Shown here piece after piece: positions 4,357-37,342 of a stretch of 64,000 bases of DNA. This DNA is from SAR202 cluster bacterium. Its GTDB lineage: Bacteria > Chloroflexota > Dehalococcoidia > Lucifugimonadales > UBA3495. The stretch covers positions 19,747 to 83,746 of the forward strand of contig JABMNL010000023.1 of the NCBI GenBank assembly GCA_013204585.1, read 5' to 3'. Numbering within the stretch: position 1 is the stretch's first letter; each line of letters starts with the position of its first letter. The position numbers and the translations under genes were made by a program. The notes under the pieces are model-generated. The model was not told the DNA's origin, did no database searches, and was given only the letters and a program-made list of their open reading frames with translations.

Positions 4357-4444
4357 CAATAACCTCCTATCTGTGGGCTTTGCCCGTCTTTATTTCCCGT
4401 CTCTATTTATTAGGGTCCGGTTTGAATCTAGTCCGGCGACCGGC

Positions 4445-9746: not shown

Positions 9747-9819
9747 GGTTTATTCCTTATCTAGATCTAGCGGTTGATTTTGTAATGGGCTGTCTGGCGG
9801 GTACGCGAAGCTAGGACTG

Positions 9820-10161
9820 CTATGCCTCAGCTAAGGGCACGGCCAAGATATAACGCATGCCTTCTCCGAGGCCACGGGCAATGTGACCATGGCCGCTCAA
9901 GTCTTCTGCAACCAAGACGTCTCCGGGCACGAATTGGCGTTTGCTTCCGTCGGCGGTTTCGTACTCGGCGGTACCGAGCAGGTGCAACACGTACTGACGC
10001 CGGGGGGCGGTGTGGTAATCCAAGAAAGATGGGGCTTCGCGGGCGTTCAGTTGAATATCGCCCTTGCCCAAACGCTTGGCGATGGTCACCATTTCTTCCT
10101 GGGAGACATCTTCAAAGTGAGACTCGCCATCGTCTCCGGCAAATACTCGAACAATCTTCAT
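9820..10161 (-). CDS. small cupin-like protein, paralog 2 (type I)
   Basis: Start moved to ATG 10161 (GGAG RBS 9 nt upstream), giving MKIVRVFAGDDGESHFEDV. Roughly two thirds of positions are identical to paralog 1 by eye. Confidence 0.7.
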   Translation of the reverse strand: MKIVRVFAGDDGESHFEDVSQEEMVTIAKRLGKGDIQLNAREAPSFLDYHTAPRRQYVLHLLGTAEYETADGSKRQFVPGDVLVAEDLSGHGHIARGLGEGMRYILAVPLAEA

Positions 10162-10269
10162 ATTAGGACTCTCCATTAAATCTGGTTAAGAATCCGCGCC
10201 CAGTAATTCGCGCTTAGTAATTAGGGTAATTGACTCAAGGCGCCGCAGGCACGAAACGCGGTTGCACCG

Positions 10270-10608
10270 CTAGTCGGCTAGGGGGACGGTGCAGGTTACG
10301 CAGTTTACCGTGCCGGGGGTCTTGGTCGTGTGGCCCTGGCCGGTGGTGTCCTCGACTAGCCGAGCATCGCCGGGGCCGAACAGATGGGTGGAGCCATCGC
10401 CCAGTCCAATCTCAATCTGACCTGAAAGACAGATTACGTACTGACGGCGCGGGGCCGGATGCCAGTCGATGAAGCGGCCAGCTTCGTGCTCGCGGAAAGA
10501 GATGTTGGTGGTATTCACGGCGTTGACCAACTCGGGGTGGGTGGCCAGGCTGGTTTCCTCGACATGGGTCTGGCCGTCATCGCCGGTGTACATTCTATAG
10601 ATTCCCAT
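10270..10608 (-). CDS. small cupin-like protein, paralog 3 (type II)
   Basis: 112 aa: MGIYRMYTGDDGQTHVEE ... DWHPAPRRQYV ... PGDARLVEDTTGQGH. Confidence 0.7.
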   Translation of the reverse strand: MGIYRMYTGDDGQTHVEETSLATHPELVNAVNTTNISFREHEAGRFIDWHPAPRRQYVICLSGQIEIGLGDGSTHLFGPGDARLVEDTTGQGHTTKTPGTVNCVTCTVPLAD

Positions 10609-17034: not shown

Positions 17035-18117
17035 ATGCACTACGGCCTAATAATGGAATGCGATTACCGCTACGGCCATTCCGAGCAAGAAGCCTTTGAC
17101 GAGGCCTTTGCCATGGCGGATGCCGCCGAGAACGGCGGCTTGGACGGAGTGTGGTTGGCAGAGCGTCACTTCGCCGCGCCCCGGGCTCCCTTGGACGCCA
17201 TGGGAGCAGGTATACCGTCTGTGGTGTCGGCCCCATTAATTATTTCTACCGCTATTGTGGCTCGAACCGAGCGTTTGCGGGTGGGTGTGGCCGTGAACGT
17301 GCTTCCTCTCAGTCATCCCATAAAAATGGCAGAAGAGGTTGCCACGCTGGACCAGATTAGCAAAGGCCGGGTCGACTTCGGCGTTGGTCGCAGCGGGTTC
17401 ATGAGGGCCTACGAGGGGTATGACATACCCTACGCTGAGAGCAGGGAGCGTTTCCAAGAGAACCTGGAAATTATTCTGGCGGCGTGGACCAACGAGCGGT
17501 TTTCTTACGAGGGTGAAAACTACAAGTTAAACGATGTTTGTGTGGTTCCAAAGCCATACCAGAAACCCCACCCGCCCCTACGGATGGCCGCCACCACCAA
17601 GGAAACCTTCCCCCAGGTGGGGAAATTGGGCTATCCCATCTTCGTCGGTCTAAGGGGGCTCGACCGTCCCGATCTGGTCAAGCTTCTAGATGACTACCGC
17701 GAAGCGTGGAAAACTGCCGGTCATGCCGGGAACGGAGACGTTTACCTGCGCATTCCGGTCTACGTCGCCGCGTCGCAAGACGAGGCCTACGCGGACGCCG
17801 AAGAAAGCACGATGCGATCTTACCGGCGTATGGCCCAGAACTTTGCCAATTCGGCATCTGCCGCCGGTGCCGTTGCTTCTGAAGACCGGGCTGCCCGTGG
17901 TCAAGCCTTGGCCGCCGTCACCTACCAAGACTTGATTCGTGACCGCTTGGCCTATGGTAGTCCCGAAGGCGTGGCCAGTCAGTTGAAATCGATTACCGAG
18001 GAATTGGGCCTTTCGGGCATCGTCGCCGAGACCAACGTCGGCGGGCTGATACCCAGGCAGAAGGTAGTTCAGTCCATAGACCTTTTCTGCAAAGAGGTTG
18101 TGCCAGCCCTCAGATAA
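17035..18117 (+). CDS. LLM-class (luciferase-like) flavin-dependent oxidoreductase
   Basis: AGGAGG RBS, DGVWLAERHF, GRVDFGVGRSG, and about 360 aa. Confidence 0.85.
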   Translation: MHYGLIMECDYRYGHSEQEAFDEAFAMADAAENGGLDGVWLAERHFAAPRAPLDAMGAGIPSVVSAPLIISTAIVARTERLRVGVAVNVLPLSHPIKMAEEVATLDQISKGRVDFGVGRSGFMRAYEGYDIPYAESRERFQENLEIILAAWTNERFSYEGENYKLNDVCVVPKPYQKPHPPLRMAATTKETFPQVGKLGYPIFVGLRGLDRPDLVKLLDDYREAWKTAGHAGNGDVYLRIPVYVAASQDEAYADAEESTMRSYRRMAQNFANSASAAGAVASEDRAARGQALAAVTYQDLIRDRLAYGSPEGVASQLKSITEELGLSGIVAETNVGGLIPRQKVVQSIDLFCKEVVPALR

Positions 18118-21423: not shown

Positions 21424-22530
21424 ATGAAAGGCCGAGTGGTAGTCTGCAAGGAATACGGCAAACCCTTTGTGATTGAAGAATATGAGGTTCCCGAGCCTGC
21501 TCCCGGTGCAGTCATCCTCCGTATGACCCAAGCAGGAGTCTGCGGTTCGGACCTCCACACTTGGCGCGGCGACCAGAACAACCGCGACCTGCCAATCCCG
21601 CCCACGGGTCGGGCCATGGGACACGAGGGCACCGGAGTGGTGGAGCAACTGGGCGACGGTATCGAAACCGATACCGCTGGAGCGCCCATCAAGAAGGGAG
21701 ACCGGGTGGTCTACGCCGCCGTCTTTCCCTGTTACCACTGCCGCCAATGCCTCAAGGGCAACACCAACTGGTGCATGAACCGGGCCTATCCCGCCGCCGG
21801 TGTGTGGCCCTACTTCACCGCTACCTACTCTGATTACCTATACTTGCCCGCCCGCCATCCATTCTTCAAGGTGCCAGACGAACTGGACGACAACATTTTG
21901 GGGCCGGTGAACTGCGCCATGGGCACGGTCACCACCGGACTAATCCGGGCACAGGCAGGCGAGGGCGACTACGTAGTAATACAGGGCGCTGGCGGCCTGG
22001 GCATCCACGCCACCGCCATGGCCAAAGAGATGGGCGCAGACCGGGTAATCGTCATCGATCGCCTGGAAAACCGTCTGCAATTGGCCGAGGAATTCGGCGC
22101 TGACCACACCATCAACATCGAAGAATTCAACACTCCCGAGACCAGGCTTCGCCGGGTTAGAGAACTGACCGACGGCCGGGGCGCGGACGTGGTGATGGAG
22201 TTGGTAGGCCGGGCCGAACTGCTGGCCGAGGGCATCGACATGCTGAGCAATGGCGGCACATTTGTCGAGATTGGCGACATAGTTAGGGGCCGGGAGGTGG
22301 CCATCGACCCCTCCAAACTGCTAACCGGCAAGAATATTGTCGGCTCGCTCATGTACAAGCCGGAATTGCTGCCCAGATTGTTGAACTTCCTGGTTCGGAA
22401 GAAGGATGTTTTGCCCTTCCACAAAATTGTCTCCCACCAATTTCCGCTGGCCGAGGTCAACGACGCCTTCGCCCAGGCTGAATGGGATCAAAGTCAGACT
22501 CCCATCACCAGGGCGATGCTAGTTCCCTAG
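21424..22530 (+). CDS. zinc-dependent medium-chain alcohol dehydrogenase family
   Basis: GVCGSDLHTWRG, GHEGTGVVEQLG, the structural-Zn Cys cluster CYHCRQCLKGNTNWC, and a GAGGLG Rossmann motif. Confidence 0.88.
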   Translation: MKGRVVVCKEYGKPFVIEEYEVPEPAPGAVILRMTQAGVCGSDLHTWRGDQNNRDLPIPPTGRAMGHEGTGVVEQLGDGIETDTAGAPIKKGDRVVYAAVFPCYHCRQCLKGNTNWCMNRAYPAAGVWPYFTATYSDYLYLPARHPFFKVPDELDDNILGPVNCAMGTVTTGLIRAQAGEGDYVVIQGAGGLGIHATAMAKEMGADRVIVIDRLENRLQLAEEFGADHTINIEEFNTPETRLRRVRELTDGRGADVVMELVGRAELLAEGIDMLSNGGTFVEIGDIVRGREVAIDPSKLLTGKNIVGSLMYKPELLPRLLNFLVRKKDVLPFHKIVSHQFPLAEVNDAFAQAEWDQSQTPITRAMLVP

Positions 22531-22578
22531 GTTCTAGACCGCTAGATTTTCTCGCATACCATTCAATTAGTTGGGAGG

Positions 22579-23826
22579 ATGGCGATGGTGGCGAAAAAAG
22601 AACAGCCGCCGGTCCTGATTGAACCGAGGGAAGACCTAGTTCAGGCTGCTCAGAAAGTTGCTGTTCGGATAGCGGAACGAGCTTCCGAGGCTGACCGCCA
22701 GCGCCGGGTGCCGGTGGAGAACATTCAGGACTTGCACCAAGCCGGAATGCTGTCTGTTGCCATTCCCAAAGAACTGGGCGGGACCGAAGCCGACCTGGTA
22801 ACTCAGGTCGCGGTCTACGAGATTATCGGCGGCGCCTGCGCGTCCACCGCCTGGGTCATGGGCAACCACTCAGTGCTCTGCACTCGGGCGCTGGGCATGA
22901 TGGGCGAGGCCGCGCATCCGCTGCTCCGGGATGTGGTCGAAAACGGTGCTCTAATATCCCACGCCGCAATCCCCGGTGGAGATACCAAGGCGGCACCCGG
23001 CGGGTTCGTATCTTCTGGTCGCTGGCCCTTCGTCAGCGGGTCGAACCTATCCACCTGGATTTTTCTTAGCACATTGGTTGCTGGCCCGCCGCCCAACTGG
23101 AACGGGCCAGGGTCTGGACCCGTACCGCCCAAAACCCACAACCGCTGGCTCATGCTGCCCGCCGACCAACGGGGAATGACCATCGAAGAGACCTGGATGT
23201 CCATGTCGGCCCGTGGTTCCATGACCAACGATGTGCTCCTTGATGATGTCTTTATTGCCGAGGATATGGCTCCGGTGGAATACCGCCCCGCTCCCCACAT
23301 GCCTTGGCTGCCCAACGGCCCAGCGGCCCTCAAGGTTCCCACCAAGGCCAGAGTCTGGATGTCGGGCATGATGCTGGGCATTGCCCAAGCGGCTTTGGAC
23401 GAGACAATTGAGTTTGGCAAAGCTCGCACCATGACTCTGGGGGGTATACCCAGGAGCAGCATGCCAGGCAATCAGTTCGCCGTGGCCGACGCCGCCATGG
23501 CCATCGAGTCGGGCCGGGCGTTCTTGCTCCAAGAGGTCCGTTCCATCACCAACAAGGCCATCGCGGGCGAAGATTTTGTCCCCAATGACGCGTCCCGCAT
23601 GGAGATGGCCGGTCTGGTGGCTAGGGAGAACGCTCAAAAAGCAGTGGACCGGCTCTTTGCGGTCAGGGGCGCTCACGGACTGTTTGAGAGCGACAACTTT
23701 GAGCGTTACTACCGGGACGTCCGCATGGGCACACTCCACGCGGTAAGCGCCCCCGACTTGGTGCGCGAGCAGGTCGGTAAACACCTTTTCGACATTCCGT
23801 TGGATGTACAACCCCGCTGGGCTTAG
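22579..23826 (+). CDS. acyl-CoA dehydrogenase-fold protein (type-2 ACAD / flavin monooxygenase-like)
   Basis: ERASEADRQRRVPVENIQDLHQAGMLSVAIPKELGG and C-terminal FERYYRDVRMGTLH. Confidence 0.75.
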   Translation: MAMVAKKEQPPVLIEPREDLVQAAQKVAVRIAERASEADRQRRVPVENIQDLHQAGMLSVAIPKELGGTEADLVTQVAVYEIIGGACASTAWVMGNHSVLCTRALGMMGEAAHPLLRDVVENGALISHAAIPGGDTKAAPGGFVSSGRWPFVSGSNLSTWIFLSTLVAGPPPNWNGPGSGPVPPKTHNRWLMLPADQRGMTIEETWMSMSARGSMTNDVLLDDVFIAEDMAPVEYRPAPHMPWLPNGPAALKVPTKARVWMSGMMLGIAQAALDETIEFGKARTMTLGGIPRSSMPGNQFAVADAAMAIESGRAFLLQEVRSITNKAIAGEDFVPNDASRMEMAGLVARENAQKAVDRLFAVRGAHGLFESDNFERYYRDVRMGTLHAVSAPDLVREQVGKHLFDIPLDVQPRWA

Positions 23827-25779: not shown

Positions 25780-26091
25780 ATGGCTGAAGAAGTCATCGGA
25801 ATGGAAGACATGGCGGCAATCTTTGAGGTGACCGACGCCTTGGGGATACACCGCGAGCTGGTCCGGGTCGAACTCACAAGGGAAGACCCTGGTTCCATTC
25901 AGAAGGTAGGAAACGGCATCGTCGAGATTACGGTGCCGGCCAACGAGTCCACCGAGATATTTTGCCGCCGGTTGCGGATTGACCTAGAGGCGATGGGCTA
26001 CGAGCCGTCGGACTCCATCTTTGGCTACGATGACGACGACGAAGAAGAAGATGACACCTTTCGTCGTCCCAGCAACCAGACTCTCGAATAA
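25780..26091 (+). CDS. hypothetical acidic protein
   Basis: 103 aa with a C-terminal poly-acidic run YDDDDEEEDD and no recognisable domain. Confidence 0.4.
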   Translation: MAEEVIGMEDMAAIFEVTDALGIHRELVRVELTREDPGSIQKVGNGIVEITVPANESTEIFCRRLRIDLEAMGYEPSDSIFGYDDDDEEEDDTFRRPSNQTLE

Positions 26092-26100
26092 CCCGCAGGT

Positions 26101-26625
26101 TTAGTAACCAGGCTCCCGCCACTCAAAGGCCAGGCTGGCATAGCGCACAAAGACCGCGCCGCCGGGTGCGGCCATCGGGCCGTTGGCGGCCAACAGTGCA
26201 ATTGTGTGTTGTTCGCCAGGTTGTGCCTCTTCGGCAATTTTCACACGCTGGGGAACGTTGAACCCCTGCACTGTCCCCCGGTCTCGATTGCACTCCCCGT
26301 CAATCCACAGTTCCCCATAATCGTCGATACAAGTCTCGAACTGTACGCGCACTCCGCTTACCGGGTGCCCAGCCACGCTTTCCGGGAAGGTTATCTGAGT
26401 TCGGTACCAGACGAAGGAGAAGCCGTGGGAGATCCACTTGGCCAAGTCCTCGCATACTTCCCAACCGGAGTCGTCGTAATCGGGAAGCCGCGCGGGAGAA
26501 CCTTCAAGCTGGGAGACCAGACCCTCGTTGGGCTCGCCTGGCACCAGGCCCTGGGCAAATTTCCATTGGCCTTTCACGGTAGCCAGGCCGCTACTGGTAT
26601 TTAGGTCGATTATTGCTCGTGGCAT
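26101..26625 (-). CDS. stand-alone galactose-binding-domain-like (jelly-roll) protein
   Basis: YDDSGWEVCEDL ... FVWYRTQITFPESV ... VRVQFETCIDDYGELWIDGE resembles the GH2 N-terminal sugar-binding domain pattern (DDSxW ... WYR ... L.F.g.d....vw.NG). Confidence 0.5.
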   Translation of the reverse strand: MPRAIIDLNTSSGLATVKGQWKFAQGLVPGEPNEGLVSQLEGSPARLPDYDDSGWEVCEDLAKWISHGFSFVWYRTQITFPESVAGHPVSGVRVQFETCIDDYGELWIDGECNRDRGTVQGFNVPQRVKIAEEAQPGEQHTIALLAANGPMAAPGGAVFVRYASLAFEWREPGY

Positions 26626-26669: not shown

Positions 26670-27317
26670 CTAGATACCCACAATCTTGATGCCGGCGTGG
26701 GTCTTGTAAATACGGTTAATGTTCACCAGCATGGGCGTGATTTGCTCCACGTATTTGGCGTTGGCCAGGCTGCCGCCGTCCACACCGCGCAGGTTCTGAA
26801 TCTTATCGGCCAGGTCCATGACAACCTTCTTGGCGTCGGCGTGGTCAGAGCAGACCACCACATCCCCTTCCATGGTTACGCTGGGATTTAGAAGCTCCTC
26901 GGCGCTCACGTTCTGGAAGGCGGCCACAACCTGGGAATCGGGCAGCAGTTCCTGGGCTTCTTGGGCGGCGGAACCAGCTTCAACTTCCACCGCGCTGGCC
27001 CCCTTGCCGCGCTCGAATTTCATGGGGGCGATGACGCTAACCACGATCTTTCCTTGGAACGCTGGGCCAAGGTCTTCCAACACAGCACGCTGTCCCTCGT
27101 ACGGAAAGGCCAAAAAGATCACATCGGCTTGGAGCACCGCGCTGGGATTGTCGGTGCCCCTAATCATTGCGTTGGGTGCCAACTGGGCCAATTCCTGGGC
27201 GGCAGTGGATCCCCTAGACGCTTCGCGGGAGCCAATAATTAACTCTTCCCCGGCCAAAGCCAGCCGCAGGGCCAGTCCCTTTCCTTCCGGCCCGGTACCT
27301 CCCAAAATTGCCAGCAT
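26670..27317 (-). CDS. NADPH-dependent F420 reductase (NpdG/Fno-like)
   Basis: MLAILGGTGPEGKGLALRLALAGEELIIGSR and a length of about 215 aa match the F420:NADP oxidoreductase family pattern. Confidence 0.75.
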   Translation of the reverse strand: MLAILGGTGPEGKGLALRLALAGEELIIGSREASRGSTAAQELAQLAPNAMIRGTDNPSAVLQADVIFLAFPYEGQRAVLEDLGPAFQGKIVVSVIAPMKFERGKGASAVEVEAGSAAQEAQELLPDSQVVAAFQNVSAEELLNPSVTMEGDVVVCSDHADAKKVVMDLADKIQNLRGVDGGSLANAKYVEQITPMLVNINRIYKTHAGIKIVGI

Positions 27318-27682: not shown

Positions 27683-29692
27683 ATGAAACGGCCTTTAATA
27701 CTGATATCTGCACTGGTGGCGTTGGTCTTATTGATCGCCGCATGTGGCGGAGACACAACCCCGGAACCTGCTGAATCGGCGGCAATGGAAGTAGTTGTTA
27801 CTCCCACGCCGTTGCCCGCTGCGGGCGCCCGCGAAGTGACAATTTTGGCTGGCGGAGGCGAGGACACGGTCTTGCTAAACGCCTTCTTGGCCCGCGATAT
27901 TACAGTTCGGGCCGGTGACACGGTAACCTGGAATCTCGGTCACCCTGACGAAGTACATACGGTCTCATTTCTATCGGGTGGCGCACGAATTCCGGACGTG
28001 ATTCCCGTAGAGGGTGGCGCTCCGACCGATTTGCAACTAAACCCCGCCGTAGCATTCCCGACCAGATTTCCGGGAACGCCAGTGGAATCCTACGATGGTA
28101 CTGGCATCATTAACTCTGGGATGATGTCCAATGCCCCCGGCGGCCCGGACGCACCGCCCAACAATGTGATGAGCGTGGTCATGACCACTGAGGGCACCTA
28201 CGATTACGTCTGTCTGTTGCACCCGCAAATGATCGGCACGGTGACGGTGGTTGCAGATAATGCTGCCAATGTCGAATCACAGGCAGAGATTGATGCTCGT
28301 GCCGGTGCAGAAGAAGCGGCGCTTAGGGCCCAAATTGACGGCGTCAGGGCGGCTGGTGCGATGATTCGCAGCGAAGCCGGGCCCAACGGCACCACCACCT
28401 GGCACGTTCAGGTTGGACCGGCTGGCTTCGACTCCCAGTTGGAACTGTACGAGTTCTTGGCCTCTGACTTGACCATCCAAGAGGGTGACTCGGTCGTCTT
28501 TTCCTCGGCGGCTCCCAGCATCCACACAGTTACCTTCCATCCGGGACAGCCGCAACCGGAATTTGTCATTCCAGACTTTTCCCAACCTGGCCCCCCGGTA
28601 CTCAAGGCAAACCCCCTTGGTGCGTTTCCAGTGAAACCGTCTGGGGAGTTTGACGGTACGGGCTACTGGAACTCGGGAATCATGTCGGCAGTGGGCGGCC
28701 CCGGTGGGACCGCATTCACCATGACCTTCTCCAAGGCCGGGAGCTACGACTACATCTGCGCGATCCACCAAACACTAGGGATGGAAGCCAACATCACAGT
28801 GGTGGAACGGACCACGTCTGTAGTATCCCAGCTGAATGGCATCTCGGCCCAATTCCCAGAGGGCTTGGCCCTAGCCGCCAATGGAAACCTATTGGTTGGT
28901 ATTGCTCCCACGGGCGAGATTCGGGAGTACACCGCGTCTGGAACGTCGACCTCCTATGCCAAGTTGCCCGCCCCCGGAGCGGGGTTCTTGTTAGACATGG
29001 TGTTTGACGCTGACGGTAATCTCTACGCCGCAATGTCCTCTTTTGATGAGGCCACCCACGGCGTCTGGAGGGTTCCCGCTGGCGGCGGTGATGGAGAACT
29101 GTTCGCGTCGTTACCAGTGGAGGGCTTCCCCAATGCGCTGGTTTTTGATGCCAACGGCGATCTGTTTGTGACCGACTCTATCGGTGGCGGTGTTTGGAAA
29201 ATAGACCAGCAGGGCGAGGTCTCTACCTGGGCCAGCGACCCATTGCTGGTAGGCACTCTGCCACCAGGCCCGTTGGGATTCCCCATCGGTGCCAACGGTA
29301 TCGTTTTTGACGCTGCCCAGCAGAATGTCTATGTCGCTAACACCGACAAGGCTCGCATAGTGCAAATACCGGTGAATGCCGATGGCACTGCCGGTACCGC
29401 CGTGACGTTCGTTGAGGACACCGTAAAGCTGGGTGGACCCGACGGTATGACCTTTGGCGCCGACGGCTACATTTACGTGGCAGTTGTGGGCAGCGATGCG
29501 GTGGCCAAGATTTCGCCGGACGGCGAGATTACAGTCCTTGCCCAAGGCGGACCACTGCAGAATCCCTCGGACGTCCAGTTCGGTTCGGGTGATGACAGTG
29601 GCACGCTCTATGTTGCCAACTTCGCAGTGTTCCGTTTGCTAGGACTGATGCCGGGGATGCCCAACCCCGCCATCTTCACCGTAGTGAACTAG
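27683..29692 (+). CDS. lipoprotein: two type-1-copper cupredoxin domains fused to an SMP-30/gluconolactonase/LRE-like six-bladed propeller
   Basis: GGGAGG RBS and lipobox LLIAACGG. Domain 1 has HTVSF ... YDYVCLLHPQMIGTVTVV and domain 2 has HTVTF ... YDYICAIHQTLGMEANITVV (H, C, H, M ligand sets). The C-terminal ~290 aa carry SGL-type blades (DADGNLYAA, DANGDLFVTDSIGGGVWKID, PNGIVFDAAQQNVYVANT, GPDGMTFGADGYIYVAV). Confidence 0.8.
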   Translation: MKRPLILISALVALVLLIAACGGDTTPEPAESAAMEVVVTPTPLPAAGAREVTILAGGGEDTVLLNAFLARDITVRAGDTVTWNLGHPDEVHTVSFLSGGARIPDVIPVEGGAPTDLQLNPAVAFPTRFPGTPVESYDGTGIINSGMMSNAPGGPDAPPNNVMSVVMTTEGTYDYVCLLHPQMIGTVTVVADNAANVESQAEIDARAGAEEAALRAQIDGVRAAGAMIRSEAGPNGTTTWHVQVGPAGFDSQLELYEFLASDLTIQEGDSVVFSSAAPSIHTVTFHPGQPQPEFVIPDFSQPGPPVLKANPLGAFPVKPSGEFDGTGYWNSGIMSAVGGPGGTAFTMTFSKAGSYDYICAIHQTLGMEANITVVERTTSVVSQLNGISAQFPEGLALAANGNLLVGIAPTGEIREYTASGTSTSYAKLPAPGAGFLLDMVFDADGNLYAAMSSFDEATHGVWRVPAGGGDGELFASLPVEGFPNALVFDANGDLFVTDSIGGGVWKIDQQGEVSTWASDPLLVGTLPPGPLGFPIGANGIVFDAAQQNVYVANTDKARIVQIPVNADGTAGTAVTFVEDTVKLGGPDGMTFGADGYIYVAVVGSDAVAKISPDGEITVLAQGGPLQNPSDVQFGSGDDSGTLYVANFAVFRLLGLMPGMPNPAIFTVVN

Positions 29693-29717: not shown

Positions 29718-29750
29718 AAGGTGGCCCCAAACCTTGGGGCCACCTTTTTT
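29718..29750 (+). terminator. intrinsic terminator after the first cupredoxin gene
   Basis: 11-bp stem aaggtggcccc / ggggccacctt followed by a T-run. Confidence 0.8.
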
Positions 29751-29845
29751 GTTTCCCTAAATAGACCGGTTGCCTGCGGGATATCGATACAGCGGCTTGA
29801 ATGTACGGCCTCTCAGTCATAGCCTAATAATTAATAGATCTGTTT

Positions 29846-29916: not shown

Positions 29917-31008
29917 ATGAAACGGCATTACATACTAACCGCCGTATTGGCAGGGTTATTGGGATTATTAATGGCTTGTGGAGGCTCTGAAACCGCAACC
30001 CCAGGCCCCGACGCCCAGGCCCGTGATATCAAATTGGTGGCCGGCCAAGGCCAAGACACGGTAGCCATTAATGCTTACTTTCCTTCGAAGGTAACAGTTC
30101 GGGCTGGCGACACATTAACCTGGGGTCTGGGTCATCCTGACGAGCCTCACACCATTAGCTTTCTTTCGGGTAGCCCTCGGCCTGCTGATTTGGTCGCTAT
30201 TGAGGGTGGCGCTCCTACTGACGTACAACTTACTCCCAGCACCCAATTCCCTACCCGCGCGCCAGGCGACCCGGTAGAGACCTACAACGGAACCAGTTTT
30301 ATCAGCTCTGGGTTGGTGGCCACTTTTCCCCAAGGCCCGCCGGGAACTCCGCCGTATGACACCTACAGCTTGGTCATGGGAACGCCCGGAACCTATGACT
30401 ACGTTTGCTTTCTACATCCGTCAATGAAAGGCTCCGTCACGGTCGTTCCTTCAAACGCTACCGACGTGTCATCTCAGGCAGAGATTGACTCCCAAGCCGA
30501 GGCTGAGGAAGCAGCGTTGCTGGCCGAGGTGGACCCAATCAGGGCCGGTGGCAATTTGGTTCGTTCTGAGCGGGGGCCCAACGGGACTACCATCTGGAAC
30601 GTACGAGCCGGTTCCGCCGGACGTGACAGCAGATCCGAAATCTATGAATTCCTGTCCAAAGAAATTAGTATCAAAGAAGGCGATACCGTTGTCTGGTCGG
30701 TAAAAGGTCCTAGCATCCATACGGTGACCTTTCACCCAGGCCAGGAAAAGCCGGGATTCATCACTGTCTTGCCTCAGGAAGCGGGGCCGCCGACCTTGCA
30801 GGTGCCTGCGAACGTGGCGTTCTTGGTGAAACCTTCGGGAGAGTTCGATGGCACCGGCTATTGGAACTCGGGTTTGATGGACATATTTGAGCCAGACCGA
30901 CCCACGTCATTCTCGATGACATTCACCGAGGCCGGGGTATATGATTACATCTGCGCCGTCCACGATTCATTGGGTATGAACGGTACGGTAACGGTGTTAA
31001 AACGCTAG
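29917..31008 (+). CDS. lipoprotein with two type-1-copper cupredoxin domains (paralog of 27683-29692 without the propeller)
   Basis: AGGAG RBS and lipobox LLMACGG. Ligand sets are HTISF ... YDYVCFLHPSMKGSVTVV and HTVTF ... YDYICAVHDSLGMNGTVTVL. Well over half of positions are identical to the upstream gene by eye. Confidence 0.85.
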   Translation: MKRHYILTAVLAGLLGLLMACGGSETATPGPDAQARDIKLVAGQGQDTVAINAYFPSKVTVRAGDTLTWGLGHPDEPHTISFLSGSPRPADLVAIEGGAPTDVQLTPSTQFPTRAPGDPVETYNGTSFISSGLVATFPQGPPGTPPYDTYSLVMGTPGTYDYVCFLHPSMKGSVTVVPSNATDVSSQAEIDSQAEAEEAALLAEVDPIRAGGNLVRSERGPNGTTIWNVRAGSAGRDSRSEIYEFLSKEISIKEGDTVVWSVKGPSIHTVTFHPGQEKPGFITVLPQEAGPPTLQVPANVAFLVKPSGEFDGTGYWNSGLMDIFEPDRPTSFSMTFTEAGVYDYICAVHDSLGMNGTVTVLKR

Positions 31009-31136: not shown

Positions 31137-34100
31137 ATGGCACTGACCAGGACACTGCCACCTGTGAGCGTACTGGCGGTGCTGCTCACGGTTTTGTTAG
31201 CCACCCTTACTTTGGTGGTCGCCTGTGGAGCCGAATCCGGCGGACCATCTCCCGCATCATCTGAGTCCGCTTCACCGACACCCCATCCCGACGACGGCCA
31301 CGACGATGAAGCTACGCCCGGCGGTCACGCTGGAGACGAGGGTTTGGTGCTGCGTCCGCAGGCCGAAGAAAGCGTGTACGCGGCCGCCCGTTGCCCGTCC
31401 GATGCCCCGGTACGGGAATTCAACGTCGCGGCGATTAACGTAGAAATAAGCCTGAACCGTTTTCTAGACTATGACCCTCTGGGGCGCATGTACGTTCTGG
31501 AAGATGAATTATCCAGGGCGCAGGCCGAGGAAGCCCAGAACCGCGCTGCCCGTGCCGACTTGGCCGAGCCAGCGGTGTCAATTGGCCTACAGGGCGACGC
31601 TATCCAGCCGTTGACCATCAGAGTTACCCAAGGTGACTGCCTGCGCTTCAACCTCCGCAATGCCCTGAACAACGGTGAATCGGCCAGTTTCCATCTCCAC
31701 GGCTCCGGACTCCAACTGACCAGCAATGGCACAGCCGCGGTGGCATCTAATTCCGCATCGGTGGCCAAATCTGGCGAAACTGTGGGCTACGAATGGATGG
31801 TGCCCCGAGACCAACCCGAGGGCACCCACTACTTCCACAGTCACGGCGACACCAGAGAGCAGACCGCTCACGGGCTATTTGGCGCGGTAATAGTGGAGCC
31901 GCATGGAGCCGAGTTCTTGAACCCCAGCAACGGTCAAGAACTGCGCAGCGGCTGGGCGGCCGTCATCCGAAACCCGGACGGTAGCGACTTCCGCGAGTTC
32001 GCCATCTATTACCATGAGATTGGCAACGAAGCATTCACCATCGAGAACAAGTTGGGCAGCACTGGGTTTAGCTTGGCCGGTGGGCGGGCAGTGCCTTTCG
32101 TGGACGAATTCACCGGCGCCTACAAGCCCGGTGGACGGGCCATCAACTATCGTAGTGAACCCTTCATGAATCGTATGGAGCTTCAGTTCAACGAAACCGG
32201 AGTGTTCGACCCGGCACTGGCCTATAGCTCCTACACCTTCGGCGACCCCGCCACGCCGATCGCTCGTACCTACCTGGGAGACCCCGTAAAGCAGCGGGTA
32301 ATTCACGGTGGCTCCGAGGTCTTTCACGTGCACCACGTCCACGGCGGTGCGACCAGGTGGCGCAGGCAGCCTGCTGCAGAGCCAACGTCATTCGATAGTG
32401 GTTTTGATAAGAACCCAGACCTAGTGCCTCAGACCACCGCCCGGACCGACTCCCAGACAGTGGGGCCGTCTGAGTCCTTTGACCTGGAACATGAGTGCGG
32501 CAGCGGCGGTTGTCAGGAGAGTGTTGGCGACTTCTTGGTCCACTGCCATGTGGCCCAGCACTATGTAGCTGGCATGTGGATGATCTGGCGAGTACAAAAC
32601 ACGCTACAAACCGACCTAATTTCATTGGATGGACTGTCTAGCCTCGCCGAACTGCCGGATCGTAATGGTTCGATCAAGCCCGCCGTCACCTCTGAACAGT
32701 TGCTTGGCACCACCGTGGACTGGAAAGGCCTGACCTTTCAGATTGACGAAACAAACTTGGGTGAATGGGTCGAGCGTCAGCTCCCACCCCAGGGCATTCC
32801 CCAGAAATTGGATGCCTCTGTTTTGAACTGGGCCAAAGATGGATATTTATACCTGAACGAACCCAACACGACCAAAAAATGGCCGGGTTATGACCCGCCC
32901 AATCCCGGTGTGCGCCCGCCGCTATACTTCGACCCGGCCACCGGAAAATTGGCCTACCCGTTCTTGCGGCCCCATTTGGGGCGGCGTCCTCCCTTTGCGC
33001 CGAATCACGGGCCCGCTCCGTTCCTAGAACCAATCCGCCAGGGCACTAATACCCCACGCCCTGGAGAGAACGGGCCGGGAAGCCTTTGTCCCAACGGGGC
33101 AACAGCACGGGAGTTTGCCATCCATGCCATCGAATTGCCCATTACTTTGAATCAGCAGGCTAACTTGGTGGACCCGGTTGGACAGCTATACGTGTTGAAA
33201 GAAGAAGAGGACGCTGTCCGGGCCGATAACGCCCGCAAGCAGCCCTTGGCCATCCGGGCCAATGCCGGCGAGGACTGCGTGGACGTGGTGCTTAAGAGCG
33301 AGTTGCGTGACACCGGAGAGAACCACTTCTACAGCAAGACCAACCTGCACATCCATTTCGTCCAGTTCGACATCCAGGGCAGTGACGGTGTGGATACCGG
33401 ATTTAACTACGAAACATCGGTGCGCCCGTTTAAAGTCGAGGGCGAAGAATTGGTTGAGCCCGCATTGGCGGGCGCTTCGTCGGTGGAGTTGCGCAGCGCG
33501 CGACGGTTCCAGTCTGGTGCATTGGTTGGCGTGGGAATGGACCAAGACGAGAGTTTTGAAATCCGCCGTATTAGCTCGGTGGCAGGGAACATCGTTTCAT
33601 TCGACGAGCCTCTCGAGTTCGCGCATAGTAAAAAAGAAATAGTGAGCACTGAGTTCGTGCGCTATCGCTGGTATCCCGACGTCCAGTTCGGCACCGCCTA
33701 TTTCCACGACCACGTCAGCGCATTAACCTCATGGCGTCACGGGCTATTCGGCGCGCTAATCTCAGAGCCGCCCGGTTCGACCTACCACGACCCAAAAACC
33801 GGAGAGGAAGTGCGCAGCGGCCCCAGAGTGGATGTGCGCACCGAAGCGGTATTGTCCGACGATATTGAAGGCAGTTTCCGGGAACAGGTGTTGTTCATCC
33901 AGGATGACAACCCTCTGACCAACGTCGGCCTCTCCAGCGGCAGCTCCATGAACCTGCGAGTAGAACCCTTGGACCAACGCGGCGGCGACCCGTCTTTGCT
34001 GTTTAGCAGCGAAGAGCATGGCGACCCGGAGACACCGCTTTTGGAAGCCAACCTGGGCGATCCAATCGTAATTCGGGGCCTAGTGGCTGCTGCCAATGAC

Positions 34101-35423
34101 ACTCATACCCTGCACGTAGATGGCCACTGGTTTAGGGTTGAACCCAACAGTGAAACTTCGCCTCCGGTCAGCACGGTGCACATCGGAATATCCGAACGCT
34201 ACGACTTAGCCATTCCCAAGGCCGGTGGGCCGCAGAACATGGCTGGCGATTACCTTTATTCCAACGGCCGGGCCTTTAAGCTGCGGGAGGGCAGTTGGGG
34301 TTTAATACGTGTCTACCAACCCGACGCGGAAACCGCATTACAGGCATTGCCTGGTCGTGTTCCGGTACCAGCGGCTGACCAAGTATGTCCGTCCAACGCC
34401 CCTGCTAAGCAATTTGAAGTTTCCGCAGTGGATGTAGCCCTGCCCATGCTGGGCGGCGGCCAGGGCAAGATATTCGTGCTTGACCAGCAACGTACGGCTC
34501 TGTTGGACGATGAAATTAAGGCCGAACCTTTGGTGCTGCGGGCCAATGTGGGCGACTGCATAGCTGTCCGGCTAACCAACCTTACCGAAGGCCCAGTGTC
34601 ATTCCATGCCGACAACCTGGCTTACGACCCCATGGAATCCATGGGCATTGCAGCGGGATTCAACCCACCGCAGACAACTGCGCCGGGCGAGACCCGTACC
34701 TATATTTTCTACGCTCATCCAGACATCGGCGAGACTACAGCCATGGTTCGAGATTGGGGCAACGTGCTTGAAAATCCTCGGTTGGGCCTCTACGGCGCAA
34801 TTATCATCGGCCCGAAAGGCGCGGCCTACACCGACCCGGTATCCGGAGAAGATATTTCTGCTGGCTGGCGGGCCGACGTTCATCCGGCGACCGGCGACAG
34901 TTACCGAGACTTCGCGATATTCATGCAGGACGAAGACGAAGTTATTGGCACCCACCTGATGCCCTATAGCGAAAATGTTGCCGGAGTGTCAGCGCTGAAT
35001 TACCGGCTCGCCCCCCTAGCGCCGCGTCTGCTCGCCAACCCCAATCCGTCGCTGGCCTTCGACCCGGAAACCCACGGCAACCCGGCCACGCCGTTGTTAG
35101 AGGCCTACGTCGGAGATGGGGTGCGGCTGCACGTCCTGGTTCCCTACAGTGAACAAGCGCAGGTGTTCTCTCTGGACGGACATCAGTGGCCGCTGGAACC
35201 TGGGCTGGAAGGCTCCAACCTGCTTAGTTCTGTTCAGGTAGGTGCGCTTGAAGCCATCACCGTCATCCCCCAAGCCGGTGCCGGAGGCCGGTCCGCGCTG
35301 CCCGGCGACTATCTCTATGGTGACCACCGCGAGCCCTATCGCGAAGCTGGCTTGTGGGGATTTTTTAGGGTGTACGGCAAGTCCCAAGCAGGGGTTCCGC
35401 TAAGGCCGTTGCCAGGTAGGTAG
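31137..35423 (+). CDS. giant lipoprotein multicopper oxidase, three tandem two-domain modules (about six cupredoxin domains)
   Basis: 1428 aa with lipobox LVVACGA. Module 1 has all four MCO motifs: FHLHG, HYFHSHG, HVHHVHG and HCHVAQHYVAGMWM. Module 2 has LHIHF and YFHDHV but no HCH. Module 3 has none intact. Each module opens with CP(S/N)xA(P/T)x(R/K)(E/Q)F and ends with GDYLY...WG..RVY. Confidence 0.85.
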   Translation: MALTRTLPPVSVLAVLLTVLLATLTLVVACGAESGGPSPASSESASPTPHPDDGHDDEATPGGHAGDEGLVLRPQAEESVYAAARCPSDAPVREFNVAAINVEISLNRFLDYDPLGRMYVLEDELSRAQAEEAQNRAARADLAEPAVSIGLQGDAIQPLTIRVTQGDCLRFNLRNALNNGESASFHLHGSGLQLTSNGTAAVASNSASVAKSGETVGYEWMVPRDQPEGTHYFHSHGDTREQTAHGLFGAVIVEPHGAEFLNPSNGQELRSGWAAVIRNPDGSDFREFAIYYHEIGNEAFTIENKLGSTGFSLAGGRAVPFVDEFTGAYKPGGRAINYRSEPFMNRMELQFNETGVFDPALAYSSYTFGDPATPIARTYLGDPVKQRVIHGGSEVFHVHHVHGGATRWRRQPAAEPTSFDSGFDKNPDLVPQTTARTDSQTVGPSESFDLEHECGSGGCQESVGDFLVHCHVAQHYVAGMWMIWRVQNTLQTDLISLDGLSSLAELPDRNGSIKPAVTSEQLLGTTVDWKGLTFQIDETNLGEWVERQLPPQGIPQKLDASVLNWAKDGYLYLNEPNTTKKWPGYDPPNPGVRPPLYFDPATGKLAYPFLRPHLGRRPPFAPNHGPAPFLEPIRQGTNTPRPGENGPGSLCPNGATAREFAIHAIELPITLNQQANLVDPVGQLYVLKEEEDAVRADNARKQPLAIRANAGEDCVDVVLKSELRDTGENHFYSKTNLHIHFVQFDIQGSDGVDTGFNYETSVRPFKVEGEELVEPALAGASSVELRSARRFQSGALVGVGMDQDESFEIRRISSVAGNIVSFDEPLEFAHSKKEIVSTEFVRYRWYPDVQFGTAYFHDHVSALTSWRHGLFGALISEPPGSTYHDPKTGEEVRSGPRVDVRTEAVLSDDIEGSFREQVLFIQDDNPLTNVGLSSGSSMNLRVEPLDQRGGDPSLLFSSEEHGDPETPLLEANLGDPIVIRGLVAAANDTHTLHVDGHWFRVEPNSETSPPVSTVHIGISERYDLAIPKAGGPQNMAGDYLYSNGRAFKLREGSWGLIRVYQPDAETALQALPGRVPVPAADQVCPSNAPAKQFEVSAVDVALPMLGGGQGKIFVLDQQRTALLDDEIKAEPLVLRANVGDCIAVRLTNLTEGPVSFHADNLAYDPMESMGIAAGFNPPQTTAPGETRTYIFYAHPDIGETTAMVRDWGNVLENPRLGLYGAIIIGPKGAAYTDPVSGEDISAGWRADVHPATGDSYRDFAIFMQDEDEVIGTHLMPYSENVAGVSALNYRLAPLAPRLLANPNPSLAFDPETHGNPATPLLEAYVGDGVRLHVLVPYSEQAQVFSLDGHQWPLEPGLEGSNLLSSVQVGALEAITVIPQAGAGGRSALPGDYLYGDHREPYREAGLWGFFRVYGKSQAGVPLRPLPGR

Positions 35424-35540
35424 GCCCCACAAATCCCCGTCTTGTGTTCGCAGGCAGGCTCGGCCATAATGAGGGCCAATATTTGCGAGGGCTCTCTGGG
35501 CGCATTCCCGAGCCCATTTTCAGGTAAACGGAGGTCCATC

Positions 35541-36026
35541 ATGGACGAGGACGCCAAGAAGACAGCACTACGCATGATTCCCTATGGGATGTTCGTGCTG
35601 ACCAGCAAGAGCAAGGACGGCCAGGACATTGGCGCGGCCACCGTCAACTGGGTCACGCAGACGTCGTTTGCGCCTCCGTTAGTCGCAGTGGGAGTCAAGG
35701 GTGACTCGGGCAGCCATGCCCACATTACCGACACCGGCGTGTTCGCCGTCAACGTGATTGGCAAAGACCAACTCAATACTGCCTTCAACTTCTTCAAGTC
35801 CCATGAGCGTGTTGGCGATTCCATCGGAGGCGAGGCTTTTGTGGCTGGTCCCGAAACTGGCTGTCCGCTGCTCACCAACTCCCCCGCTTGGTGGGAGTGC
35901 AAGGTGGTTGGTAAAGTCGACCACGGCGACCACACGCTGTTCGTCGGCGAAGTCCTGGAAGCTGGCCTACGCAGCGAGGACCAAACGATCCTAATGCGCG
36001 ACCACAACCTAAACTACGGCGGCTAA
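35541..36026 (+). CDS. flavin reductase-like (FMN-binding split-barrel) protein
   Basis: Start moved to ATG 35541 after GGAGG. ALRMIPYGMFVLTS ... AATVNWVTQTSFAPPLVAVGV ... GDHTLFVGEV. Confidence 0.8.
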   Translation: MDEDAKKTALRMIPYGMFVLTSKSKDGQDIGAATVNWVTQTSFAPPLVAVGVKGDSGSHAHITDTGVFAVNVIGKDQLNTAFNFFKSHERVGDSIGGEAFVAGPETGCPLLTNSPAWWECKVVGKVDHGDHTLFVGEVLEAGLRSEDQTILMRDHNLNYGG

Positions 36027-36160
36027 CCAACGCAGTTGGGTTTTCATGGGGATTGGTTGTTAGTCTGGTTTTAGGGATTTTCCGTGCTTTGTTTTTGGGT
36101 AGGGGAACGGTCAGAAGAACTTGAAATTAATAAACACTCCGAAAGGGAGGGTTCCATCCA

Positions 36161-37342
36161 ATGGTAGATCTTAGGCGTGCGGCCGCGATTGTCGGCATTC
36201 ACGAGCACATCACCCGGTACGCGCCGGACAAAAGCGAATTGCAGATTCAGGGCGAAAGCATCATCCATGCCTTGGCAGATGCTGGCCTAGAGAAAAAAGA
36301 TGTTGACGGCCTGTTCTGCGCCTCAATGTCGGTGCGTAGCAGCGGCCTGAACCTGGCCGACTATTTGAATCTCTATCCCAAGATGGTCGACAACACCACT
36401 GTGGGCGGCGGCTCCTTTGAGTTTCACCTCTCCCACGCGTTGAACGCCATTCACGCTGGCCGCATCAATTGCGCTGTCATCACCTACGCCACCCAGGCTC
36501 GGTCGGGTGGCGTGTCGGTGGGCACCGGCGGCATCAGTCGACAGGGGCATCCCCGGCTCGACCCGTCGCCCGATAGTTTTGAAGAACTCTACGGTCTGAC
36601 AACCGTCGGCCTGTACGCCATGATTGCCCAGCGGCACATGCACCTTTACGGCACTACCTCAGAGCAGTTGGCCGAGGTTGCAGTAACCATGCGCAGGCAT
36701 GCAGGGCTCAACCCCGAGGCGTTATTCCGCGACCCAATTACCGTGGCAGATGTGATGCGATCCCCGGTGGTATCTACTCCGCTGCACCGCAACGACTGCT
36801 GTGTCATTACCGACGGCGGTGGCGCGGTTGTGGTGGCCTCGCCAGAGTTGGCCCGCAACTGCAAACAGACCCCGGTATGGGTAATGGGCGCGGGAGAAGC
36901 GGTGGCCCACCAGGGAGCAGGCAAGCGCGACCTGATGTACATCGCCGCCAAGCAGAGCCATGTGCCAGCCTTCGAGATGGCTGGCGTCACCCACAAAGAC
37001 ATCGACATGGCCATGATCTACGACTCCTTCACCATCACGGTGATTGAGACCCTCGAAGACCTGGGCTTCTGCGAGAAGGGCGAGGGCGGACAGTTCGTTT
37101 TGAACGGCCGCATCGGCTTGGGCGGAGAGCTTCCCATCAACACCGACGGCGGTGGGCTGTCTTCGAACCATCCCGGAATGCGGGGTCTGTTCCTGTTGTT
37201 GGAGGCCACCCGCCAATTGCGCCATCAGTTCGAAGGAACCGAGCGGCAGGTACCAGACTGCAAAATTGCTTTGTGCCACGGCACCGGCGGAGCATTAGGC
37301 TCCCGTCATAGCGGCGGCACAGTTATCTTGGCGAGGGACTAG
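36161..37342 (+). CDS. thiolase-fold protein (SCP-x/DitF-type, non-acetoacetyl thiolase)
   Basis: 393 aa with IVGIHEH, NTDGGGLSSNHPGMRG and CHGTGG near the C-terminus. It is followed 2 nt later by its usual DUF35 partner. Confidence 0.8.
   Translation: MVDLRRAAAIVGIHEHITRYAPDKSELQIQGESIIHALADAGLEKKDVDGLFCASMSVRSSGLNLADYLNLYPKMVDNTTVGGGSFEFHLSHALNAIHAGRINCAVITYATQARSGGVSVGTGGISRQGHPRLDPSPDSFEELYGLTTVGLYAMIAQRHMHLYGTTSEQLAEVAVTMRRHAGLNPEALFRDPITVADVMRSPVVSTPLHRNDCCVITDGGGAVVVASPELARNCKQTPVWVMGAGEAVAHQGAGKRDLMYIAAKQSHVPAFEMAGVTHKDIDMAMIYDSFTITVIETLEDLGFCEKGEGGQFVLNGRIGLGGELPINTDGGGLSSNHPGMRGLFLLLEATRQLRHQFEGTERQVPDCKIALCHGTGGALGSRHSGGTVILARD

Follow-up and report, generated by a model that had tools for sequence, protein, structure and literature searches.

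Double blue-copper proteins fused to an SGL propeller accompany a MnxG-like multicopper oxidase in SAR202 bacteria

Why would two electron-transfer domains and a lactonase-type β-propeller be joined in one polypeptide? The question is raised by a gene in a 64,000-nucleotide stretch of contig JABMNL010000023.1 (assembly GCA_013204585.1, SAR202 cluster bacterium), which is the whole of the DNA analysed here and is called the window below. The product of this gene, called the fusion, consists of two cupredoxin (blue-copper) domains and a propeller of the SGL family. A preliminary description had read this combination as redox-coupled catalysis or substrate binding by the propeller. The decisive context was absent from that description: a giant multicopper oxidase of MnxG type is encoded immediately downstream, and its place beside the double-cupredoxin module is conserved. 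We suggest that the fusion is a lipid-anchored accessory of this oxidase, in which the coppers would relay electrons and the propeller would be a metal-dependent hydrolase working at the same site. To this functional reading we give a probability of roughly 55%.

Three neighbouring genes of the window form the arrangement, and lipoprotein-type signals are present on all three products.

27683..29692, + strand: whole fusion gene, encoding a 669-amino-acid (aa) lipoprotein with two cupredoxin domains and an SGL propeller (open reading frame (ORF) list, Pfam, NCBIfam)
29917..31008, + strand: paralog, a 363-aa double-cupredoxin lipoprotein without the propeller, with all eight copper ligands (ORF list, Pfam, NCBIfam)
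31137..35423, + strand: multicopper oxidase, a 1428-aa lipoprotein with lipobox VVAC (Pfam Cu-oxidase_3 and Cu-oxidase_2; PDB 9bxa_A)

The oxidase is homologous to Bacillus MnxG (PDB 9bxa_A) over its whole length, in seven co-linear segments (E=2e-106, 360 bits), and the type-1 (T1) copper sites of the two proteins align, with HCHVAQHYVAGMW in the SAR202 oxidase and HCHLYPAFGIGMW in MnxG. A three-fold internal repeat is marked by the Cys pairs 86/168, 651/714 and 1084/1141. The complete set of T1 and trinuclear copper motifs (HxH at 186, 234, 397 and 400; HCHxxxHxxxxM at 469) is confined to the first of these repeats, within the first ~490 aa. Against the NCBIfam MnxG model NF041487, which is of Pseudomonas type, the oxidase scored 152.9 bits where the cutoff is 3100, and hence lies outside that equivalog. 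Directly 5′ of the oxidase gene stand cupredoxin lipoproteins of 36–70 kDa and not proteins of ~12 kDa, no search for MnxE/F homologs having been made. The paralog shares 58% identity with the fusion over the double-cupredoxin module and matches Copper-bind at 54.2 bits. It stops right after its second cupredoxin, as had been described: its end ...TVTVLKR aligns with ...ITVVER376 of the fusion, the exact end of cupredoxin 2 there.

To see the arrangement beyond the window, all fetched loci were mapped by tblastn. In the following lines 2Cu stands for the double-cupredoxin module, MCO for the MnxG-like oxidase, MBL for a hydrolase domain of metallo-β-lactamase fold, and a hyphen for fusion in one protein.

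Window: 2Cu-SGL, 2Cu, MCO
L001, L012 and L013: 2Cu-SGL, MCO
L002: 2Cu-SGL truncated by an insertion sequence (IS), MCO
L006: 2Cu-SGL-MBL (1010 aa), MCO
L007, identical with L017 (2.4-Mb chromosome OY761986.2): IS-truncated, frameshifted 2Cu-SGL with a C-terminal repeat extension, MCO
L008/L009: SnoaL-2Cu, the SnoaL-like domain being N-terminal, MCO
L010/L011: 2Cu-SGL, 2Cu, 2Cu plus MBL, MCO
L014: 2Cu-SGL, 2Cu-MBL, MCO
L016: 2Cu, 2Cu-MBL, MCO
L018: 2Cu, then MCO after an interruption
L019 (Caldilineaceae) and L021: 2Cu, MCO
L031: SGL adjoining MCO

The double-cupredoxin module thus lies directly upstream of a 1350–1475-aa MnxG homolog almost always, in about 13 loci. The cassette occurs in at least two chromosomal neighbourhoods, one running from npdG to flavin reductase/thiolase and the other from ArgS to MgtE/peptidase S51, and because these are different, the adjacency of module and oxidase is not just inherited synteny. 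The core of the cassette is the cupredoxin pair and the oxidase, while SGL, MBL-fold and SnoaL-like domains are interchangeable additions to the cupredoxin carrier. MBL cargo was found in L006, L010/L011, L014 and L016 and SnoaL-like cargo in L008/L009 and L032, with the oxidase adjacent in all of these except L032. The best match of the MBL cargo is to SoxH-related 'quinoprotein relay system' metallohydrolases (1.3e-20), at a score of 74 against a curated cutoff of 280.

Some loci have lost parts of the cassette. L003/L015 share the upstream synteny and have neither paralog nor oxidase; the fusion is followed there by a flavin reductase and then by a GmrSD/methyltransferase island, and the flavin reductase directly 3′ of the L003 fusion is the gene found 3′ of the oxidase in the window. 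In L003/L015 (9590–10050), and also in L004 and L005, the fusion has a single frameshift in cupredoxin 1, between ...PTRAPGAP and VESYDG.... A frameshifted fusion in the oxidase-less L003 fits dependence of the fusion on the oxidase, in what is a single lineage. IS elements lie immediately upstream of the fusion in L002 (8469–9935, integrase-type transposase) and in L007 (6112–7893, DDE transposase), two independent genomes in which the insertions cost the fusion its signal peptide and part of cupredoxin 1. The extra C-terminal ~286 aa of the L007 fusion (9695–10552) are two similar repeats of ~140 aa with the motif ...FQVHFLV(V/I)D..., and searches with this extension returned faint fn3-like matches and no confident family.

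The fusion gene itself is an unbroken ATG-to-stop frame in the six-frame ORF list of the window, with a GGAGG ribosome-binding site ~10 nt 5′ of the start. Its parts, together with a hairpin in the 3′ flank, are as follows.

27683..27745, + strand: lipoprotein signal peptide with lipobox IAAC, Cys21 predicted to be lipidated (MKRPLILISALVALVLLIAAC, then GG; regular-expression match)
27746..27817, + strand: flexible tether rich in Pro/Thr/Glu, aa 22–45 (composition of the translation; predicted local distance difference test (pLDDT) <50 for aa 14–39)
27818..28252, + strand: cupredoxin 1, aa 46–190 (NCBIfam amicyanin at aa 154–189; alignments to amicyanin in PDB)
28253..28360, + strand: α-helix of 25 residues between the cupredoxins, aa ~200–224 (DSSP on the model, H200–224)
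28361..28810, + strand: cupredoxin 2, aa 227–376 (Pfam Copper-bind at aa 258–373)
28811..29689, + strand: six-bladed SGL (SMP-30/gluconolactonase/LRE-type) β-propeller, aa 377–669, ~292 aa (Pfam, PDB profile, Foldseek)
29718..29756, + strand: terminator-like hairpin and T-run, 26 nt past the fusion stop (consensus scan)

The motif alone predicts that the fusion is a lipid-anchored lipoprotein with Cys21 lipidated. An AlphaFold 2 model reached a mean pLDDT of 86.3 and a predicted template-modelling score (pTM) of 0.78 for the whole chain; its input was a mixed MAFFT alignment of 148 sequences, in which cupredoxin-only proteins were misaligned. Profile hidden Markov models, this confident model and Foldseek bear out the earlier assignment of two blue-copper domains and an SGL/SMP-30-type six-bladed propeller, and also its estimate of ~290 aa for the propeller. 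Of the six propeller motifs quoted at that time five recur exactly; the sixth is one residue off and reads ANGIVFDAAQQNVYVANT, with ANG... where PNG... had been given. Cupredoxin_1, Vgb_lyase, NHL and SSL_N were weaker Pfam matches in the fusion.

Both N-terminal domains have the features of type-1 copper proteins. Pfam places Copper-bind (PF00127) at aa 258–373 with 45.7 bits (gathering cutoff 21.2, E=8.8e-12), and NCBIfam gave partial amicyanin, plastocyanin, pseudoazurin and halocyanin matches in both halves of the N-terminal region. The Cu/Zn-SOD family was not found in the fusion by the Pfam and NCBIfam scans; the N-terminal domains are cupredoxins. A full His-Cys-His-Met set stands at the canonical positions of each domain: H92, C177, H180 and M183 in cupredoxin 1, with an amicyanin-like C-x2-H-x2-M loop, and H281, C359, H362 and M367 in cupredoxin 2, with a plastocyanin-like C-x2-H-x4-M loop. 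The latter four are invariant across the fusion family, and a conserved V(V/T)ER motif closes cupredoxin 2. An alignment anchored by phmmer, with 128 rows, has H in 84, C in 102, H in 103 and M in 92 rows at the ligand positions of cupredoxin 1, and H in 111, C in 106, H in 105 and M in 87 rows at those of cupredoxin 2, the rest being almost all gaps. Because the eight ligands are conserved in this way, both type-1 sites are very probably functional. The model shows all-β segments at aa 51–190 and 228–374, mostly at pLDDT 75–94, and the helix between them is free of indels in 11 of 12 other members of the fusion family (P0108 has an insertion).

Ligand set and loops are those of amicyanin-, plastocyanin- and auracyanin-type cupredoxins. 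However, these are single-domain proteins, whereas the fusion has a tandem pair, a 25-residue helix and an attached domain of catalytic type, and it scored far below the NCBIfam equivalog cutoffs (amicyanin 46.6 against 110, plastocyanin 46.7 against 88). Auracyanin A of Chloroflexus is reportedly also lipid-anchored. Most double-cupredoxin homologs have no propeller, and forms without any cargo are widespread, including Roseiflexaceae, Methanoperedens and Thermoplasmata. A separate protein, P0238, has four Copper-bind domains fused to DUF1264.

The propeller is assigned with more than one method. SGL (PF08450) matches aa 537–645 at 81.4 bits (gathering cutoff 26.3, E=1e-22), and aa 380–669 are modelled at pLDDT 94–98 with ~24 strands in six groups, that is, a six-bladed fold. 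A family profile against PDB retrieved 2p4o (5.9e-49), DrSOD of Deinococcus radiodurans (9m58, 2.8e-21) and then Drp35 and DFPase; with the single sequence, phmmer found 2p4o at 8e-14, and DrSOD was reached by the family profile only. Foldseek likewise ranked 2p4o first, with a template-modelling score (TM) of 0.81, a root-mean-square deviation (rmsd) of 2.2 Å and 25% identity, followed by DrSOD (9m58/9m59), xylonolactonase, RPA3624 lactonase, virginiamycin B lyase, DFPase, luciferin-regenerating enzyme, Drp35 and SMP30; TM was 0.70–0.74 for xylonolactonase, RPA3624, DFPase, Drp35 and SMP30. In this Foldseek search, run with the whole chain, the propeller dominated, and the DrSOD alignments extended over ~430–450 columns, far beyond the propeller alone. 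The closest solved structure, 2p4o, is NPUN_F0524 of Nostoc punctiforme, a structural-genomics 'putative lactonase of the SGL family'. Its Glu/Asn/Asn/Asp positions align with those of the fusion, and it is a stand-alone propeller without copper domains. Free-standing relatives of this propeller, 320–370 aa long, occur in many phyla.

The SGL metal-binding residues are conserved, as had been asked. They are E393, N484, N538 and D587 (E16, N107, N161 and D210 of the domain), each of the four columns shows full invariance or at least 90% conservation among 91 propeller homologs, and in the family alignment they fall exactly on the DFPase calcium ligands E21/N120/N175/D229. The DFPase and SMP30 reference sequences of this comparison reproduce the published numbering E21/N120/N175/D229/H287 and E18/N103/N154/D204. 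By these residues the propeller is predicted to hold a hydrolase-type site for calcium or another divalent metal, and not a recognisable redox site. Chemistry of the DFPase type is unlikely, since Phe647 of the fusion takes the position of the catalytic H287. The alternatives of lactonase or strictosidine synthase-like propeller, both named in the preliminary description, come apart here: the metal site is of lactonase type, and the strictosidine synthase core is not matched. Pfam gave no strictosidine synthase core family in the fusion at E≤0.01, only a marginal SSL_N match (19.8 bits against 18.9, aa 438–452), and strictosidine synthase took rank 38 in the Foldseek list. Strictosidine synthase-like propellers are not known to use a catalytic metal site; the fusion has hydrolase-type ligands. 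Membership of the ScyD/ScyE family (NCBIfam NF033206) was also rejected, the 37.9 bits against a cutoff of 80 being a distant resemblance.

The best characterised PDB relative of the propeller, by profile and by Foldseek, is DrSOD (DRA0202; PDB 9m58/9m59; PMC12362111), in which a copper-binding Greek-key β-sandwich precedes a six-bladed SGL propeller, much as predicted copper domains precede the propeller of the fusion. Its calcium site is formed by Glu200, Asn290, Asn339 and Asp381, 'closely resembling' DFPase and the gluconolactonase XC5397 (PMC12362111), with a spacing of 90/49/42 compared with 91/54/49 in the fusion. The DrSOD propeller is a Ca-dependent lactonase whose activity does not depend on the metal status of the copper domain (PMC12362111). 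DrSOD is secreted, of extracytoplasmic type, as is predicted for the fusion, and has no lipobox. There are further differences. DrSOD has one copper domain, a catalytic Cu/Zn-SOD, whereas the fusion has two electron-transfer cupredoxins; its operon partner is a glucose dehydrogenase and not a multicopper oxidase; the two families are confined to different phyla; and the inter-domain orientation differs, since two-domain Foldseek superpositions gave an rmsd of 9–12 Å. In further relatives the propeller is joined to an OsmC-like peroxiredoxin domain (P0225) or to an HbpS-like haem-binding domain (P0240). With the Cu/Zn-SOD of DrSOD these cases make fusions of such propellers with redox or oxidative-stress domains a recurring theme.

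According to our reading, the two type-1 coppers would dock on the oxidase or supply it with electrons one at a time, and the T1 site of the oxidase, with its axial Met ligand, and the trinuclear centre would hand the electrons to O2. The cupredoxins would fill the genomic position that MnxE and MnxF have in Bacillus. The propeller would be a calcium- or divalent-metal-dependent hydrolase of lactonase or esterase type, not itself redox-active, and fusion would hold it where the oxidation takes place, on the external side of the membrane, so that it may act on a substrate or a product of the oxidase chemistry. SoxH-related hydrolases may serve as a precedent for hydrolases inside periplasmic electron-relay clusters. 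In these 'quinoprotein relay system' loci (TIGR04558/TIGR04559) a periplasmic protein of hydrolase fold is encoded within an electron-relay gene cluster, which resembles the MBL cargo of our cassette and not its propeller; the redox partner there is a pyrroloquinoline quinone dehydrogenase with a cytochrome, compared with a multicopper oxidase here.

The closest analogue at the level of the system is the Mnx complex of Bacillus sp. PL-12 (MnxG with MnxE3F3; PDB 9bxa; PMC5622069). MnxG is the one characterised multicopper oxidase requiring accessory copper-binding proteins, which are encoded immediately upstream (PMC5622069), and in the SAR202 cassette putative copper-binding accessory proteins are likewise encoded directly upstream of the oxidase gene. 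The accessories themselves are different: MnxE and MnxF are ~12 kDa and were described as without similarity to any characterised protein (PMC5622069), whereas those of SAR202 are tandem type-1 cupredoxin lipoproteins of 36–70 kDa with hydrolase cargo. Bacillus MnxG is a spore-coat enzyme, unlike the oxidase of SAR202, which is a vegetative-cell lipoprotein. In the literature we found no MnxG-like oxidase for SAR202 or Chloroflexota, the MnxG of the ocean metaproteome belonging to Nitrospinae. Literature searches for SAR202 together with multicopper oxidase, Mn oxidation or plastocyanin found nothing relevant, and no publications describing cupredoxin–SGL fusions were found.

Several observations weigh against an accessory role of this kind. 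The fusion is dispensable for the oxidase in some lineages, because in L002 and L007/L017 the fusion is disrupted and the oxidase looks intact. The frameshift shared by L003, L004 and L005 may come from a single Caspian Sea dataset. The gene downstream of P0282, a divergent protein with a single cupredoxin and an SGL propeller, is not an oxidase, and a double-cupredoxin gene of Bipolaricaulia (L020) has no oxidase within 7 kb. Co-transcription of the fusion with the oxidase is doubtful in view of the strong terminator-like hairpin after the fusion gene. The lactonase activity of DrSOD is weak (PMC12362111). Finally, the substrate of the oxidase could be Mn(II), Fe(II), phenolics or the reduced cupredoxin.

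The hairpin has a perfect stem of 13 bp (AAGGTGGCCCCAA/TTGGGGCCACCTT) with 8 G-C pairs, followed by TTTTGTTT. The total of terminator-like sites in the region was not above shuffled expectation, and the stem at 29718–29756 was by far the longest among them; counts from a promoter scan equalled shuffled expectation. Thus placed, the hairpin may set the fusion apart as a transcription unit of its own from the paralog and the oxidase. This is in line with the alternative that survives best, although we regard it as unlikely, namely that the fusion is an independent bifunctional protein. Its cupredoxins would then be general respiratory carriers resembling auracyanin, in a cytochrome-poor lineage of Chloroflexota, its propeller an unrelated periplasmic lactonase sharing the lipid anchor, and the adjacency of the oxidase a matter of shared copper or export regulation with no joint pathway. 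DrSOD offers a precedent of two independent activities in one chain, fusions without an adjacent oxidase exist (L003, P0282), and the wide occurrence of cargo-free double-cupredoxin homologs points the same way. Against this alternative, the double-cupredoxin module adjoins an MnxG-like oxidase in about 13 loci and at least two chromosomal sites, and three cargo domains recur in the cassette, fused or neighbouring, which is a classic signature of functional linkage.

The redox-coupled propeller of the preliminary description comes next, and we think it improbable. In its most explicit form, the metal site would bind a redox-active substrate, and electrons would run from there through cupredoxin 2 and cupredoxin 1 to the oxidase and O2; Mn(II), Fe(II), or a phenol or enediol unmasked by opening of a lactone could be such substrates. 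Some SGL enzymes can accommodate Fe(II), Mn(II) or Zn(II) in this site, and one of the Foldseek matches, xylonolactonase (7plc), is reported to be an iron enzyme. The junction of fixed, conserved length and the pTM of 0.78 suggest a defined inter-domain geometry, the neighbour is MnxG-like, the SGL and MBL cargoes are both divalent-metal-binding folds, and relatives of the propeller are repeatedly fused to Cu/Zn-SOD, OsmC and HbpS-like domains. On the other hand, in all SGL enzymes characterised so far an all-oxygen Glu/Asn/Asn/Asp set serves as a Lewis acid in hydrolysis, the lactonase of DrSOD is unaffected by the metal status of its copper domain, and the SnoaL-like cargo has a fold that does not bind metal. 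The C-terminal strand of a cupredoxin heads from the ligand loop to the far end of the domain, which probably places the junction away from the copper. With the double-cupredoxin module acting as a generic carrier, two independent activities in DrSOD and a hydrolase-type metal site, the coupling once proposed has gained no positive support.

It is very unlikely, in our estimate, that the propeller is non-catalytic, that is, a binding or scaffold module with a structural metal, docking on the oxidase, binding polymeric dissolved organic matter (DOM) or Mn oxide, or guiding radical coupling in a dirigent-like or ScyE-like manner. The ScyD/ScyE family consists of periplasmic propellers to which a part in oxidative coupling is ascribed and for which no cofactor is known, and the weak match of 37.9 bits recalls them. 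Many NHL/SGL propellers bind only, and PknD sensor, teneurin and Lin41 were among the structural matches. The exchange of the DFPase catalytic H287 for Phe647 would also suit a propeller without catalysis. However, the four metal ligands are invariant or nearly so across 91 homologs, as in active lactonases, the ScyE score is under the curated cutoff of 80, and DrSOD, the nearest characterised relative, is catalytically active.

The weakest alternative, that two genes were joined by mis-assembly or a sequencing frameshift, has a negligible probability: relatives are indeed frameshift-fragmented in long-read or low-coverage assemblies (L003, L007, L010, L031, L032), but the window ORF is uninterrupted, an identical protein is on record from three sources and the junction recurs in at least eight independent assemblies. 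No stop or frame break had been visible beforehand, and we take the fusion as genuine, because the identical protein is on record and the architecture recurs independently. The identical protein, P0001, is found in NCBI, JGI and Logan assemblies and is named 'MAG: SMP-30/gluconolactonase/LRE family protein [SAR202 cluster bacterium]' by NCBI. P0002–P0014, from independent Dehalococcoidia/SAR202 assemblies, are complete or nearly complete in length and have the same domain order at 53–78% identity, and five GTDB species representatives, all of them metagenome-assembled genomes of Dehalococcoidia or Chloroflexota, have the same architecture. Across 13 family members, no indel is seen where cupredoxin 2 meets the propeller. 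Orthologs of 617–667 aa share an identical gap-free junction in the eight or more assemblies just mentioned, and frameshifted relatives likewise run directly from cupredoxin 2 into the propeller.

The fusion is rare as well as real. A HMMER search over 1.84 billion cluster representatives gave 10,606 matches at E≤1e-3, and among the best 150 of these the junction was spanned in four clusters: P0004 (the query's own), P0108, P0282 and P0313. P0282 and P0313 are divergent fusions with a single cupredoxin, on contigs too short for context. P0223, P0241 and P0296 were considered as further fusions and rejected, their two matched stretches being double propellers with Ig/cadherin domains. A clean split of the double cupredoxin and the SGL propeller into separate genes was not found among the fetched loci. 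L007 was a candidate for such a split, and its translation shows a frameshifted fusion with the N-terminus cut by the IS element; the 'free' propellers of L031 and L032 are fragmented cassette members.

The rest of the window holds other genes of interest. Two small genes, which share synteny with the fusion gene in both L001 and L003, are located between the gene of a Thioredoxin_9 protein and npdG (26670–27317), which encodes an NADPH-dependent F420 reductase. One is for a 103-aa protein with a highly acidic tail and no Pfam match (25780–26091, + strand), and the other for a 174-aa protein that neither Pfam nor NCBIfam matches (26101–26625, − strand). A second SGL-annotated propeller of 477 aa (2926–4359, − strand; Pfam SGL 1e-7) was compared with that of the fusion and judged unrelated, the similarity being marginal (BLASTP E=9e-4). 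A DsbD-like membrane protein with an N-terminal extension of ~230 aa is encoded at 752–2197 (− strand), with a 172-aa ORF between it and the second propeller gene, and a 497-aa ORF at 13152–14645 (− strand) has no Pfam family at E≤1e-4. Several oxidoreductase genes stand in the surroundings (17035–18117, 21424–23826 and 35442–37342, all + strand), those of the window including a luciferase-like FMN/F420 monooxygenase, npdG, a Zn-dependent alcohol dehydrogenase, an acyl-CoA dehydrogenase, a flavin reductase and a thiolase-like protein. Expanded families of FMN/F420-dependent monooxygenases and short-chain dehydrogenases have been described for SAR202 (PMC5395668).

Taken by itself, the fusion would be of modest interest, DrSOD being its one characterised relative, and its weight comes from the system around it. 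What appears to be new is the combination and the cassette; the individual domain types are textbook folds, and the automatic NCBI name is already SMP-30/gluconolactonase/LRE. According to one proposal, SAR202 bacteria oxidise the recalcitrant DOM of the deep ocean by way of lactones, for which a lactonase or esterase would be needed (PMC5395668); in this genome paper the words copper and laccase are absent. Mn oxides and laccase-like multicopper oxidases attack humic material (PMC5622069). A link of our cassette to DOM is speculation at present. As a tentative proposal, about which we are ourselves doubtful, SAR202/Dehalococcoidia may carry an undescribed extracellular oxidase machine, in which an MnxG-type oxidase is served by tandem cupredoxin lipoproteins replacing MnxE/F and carrying swappable cargo, and in which copper-driven one-electron oxidation of Mn(II) or of phenolic or humic DOM would be physically coupled to hydrolysis or rearrangement of the lactones and esters that it yields or starts from. 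If this is true, it would be a second, independent multicopper oxidase relying on dedicated copper-binding accessory proteins, and it would provide a concrete molecular route for extracellular attack on refractory DOM. SAR202/Dehalococcoidia are among the most abundant bacteria of the dark ocean. The cassette makes copper-based extracellular oxidation in these organisms directly testable, and this bears on marine Mn cycling and on the turnover of DOM.

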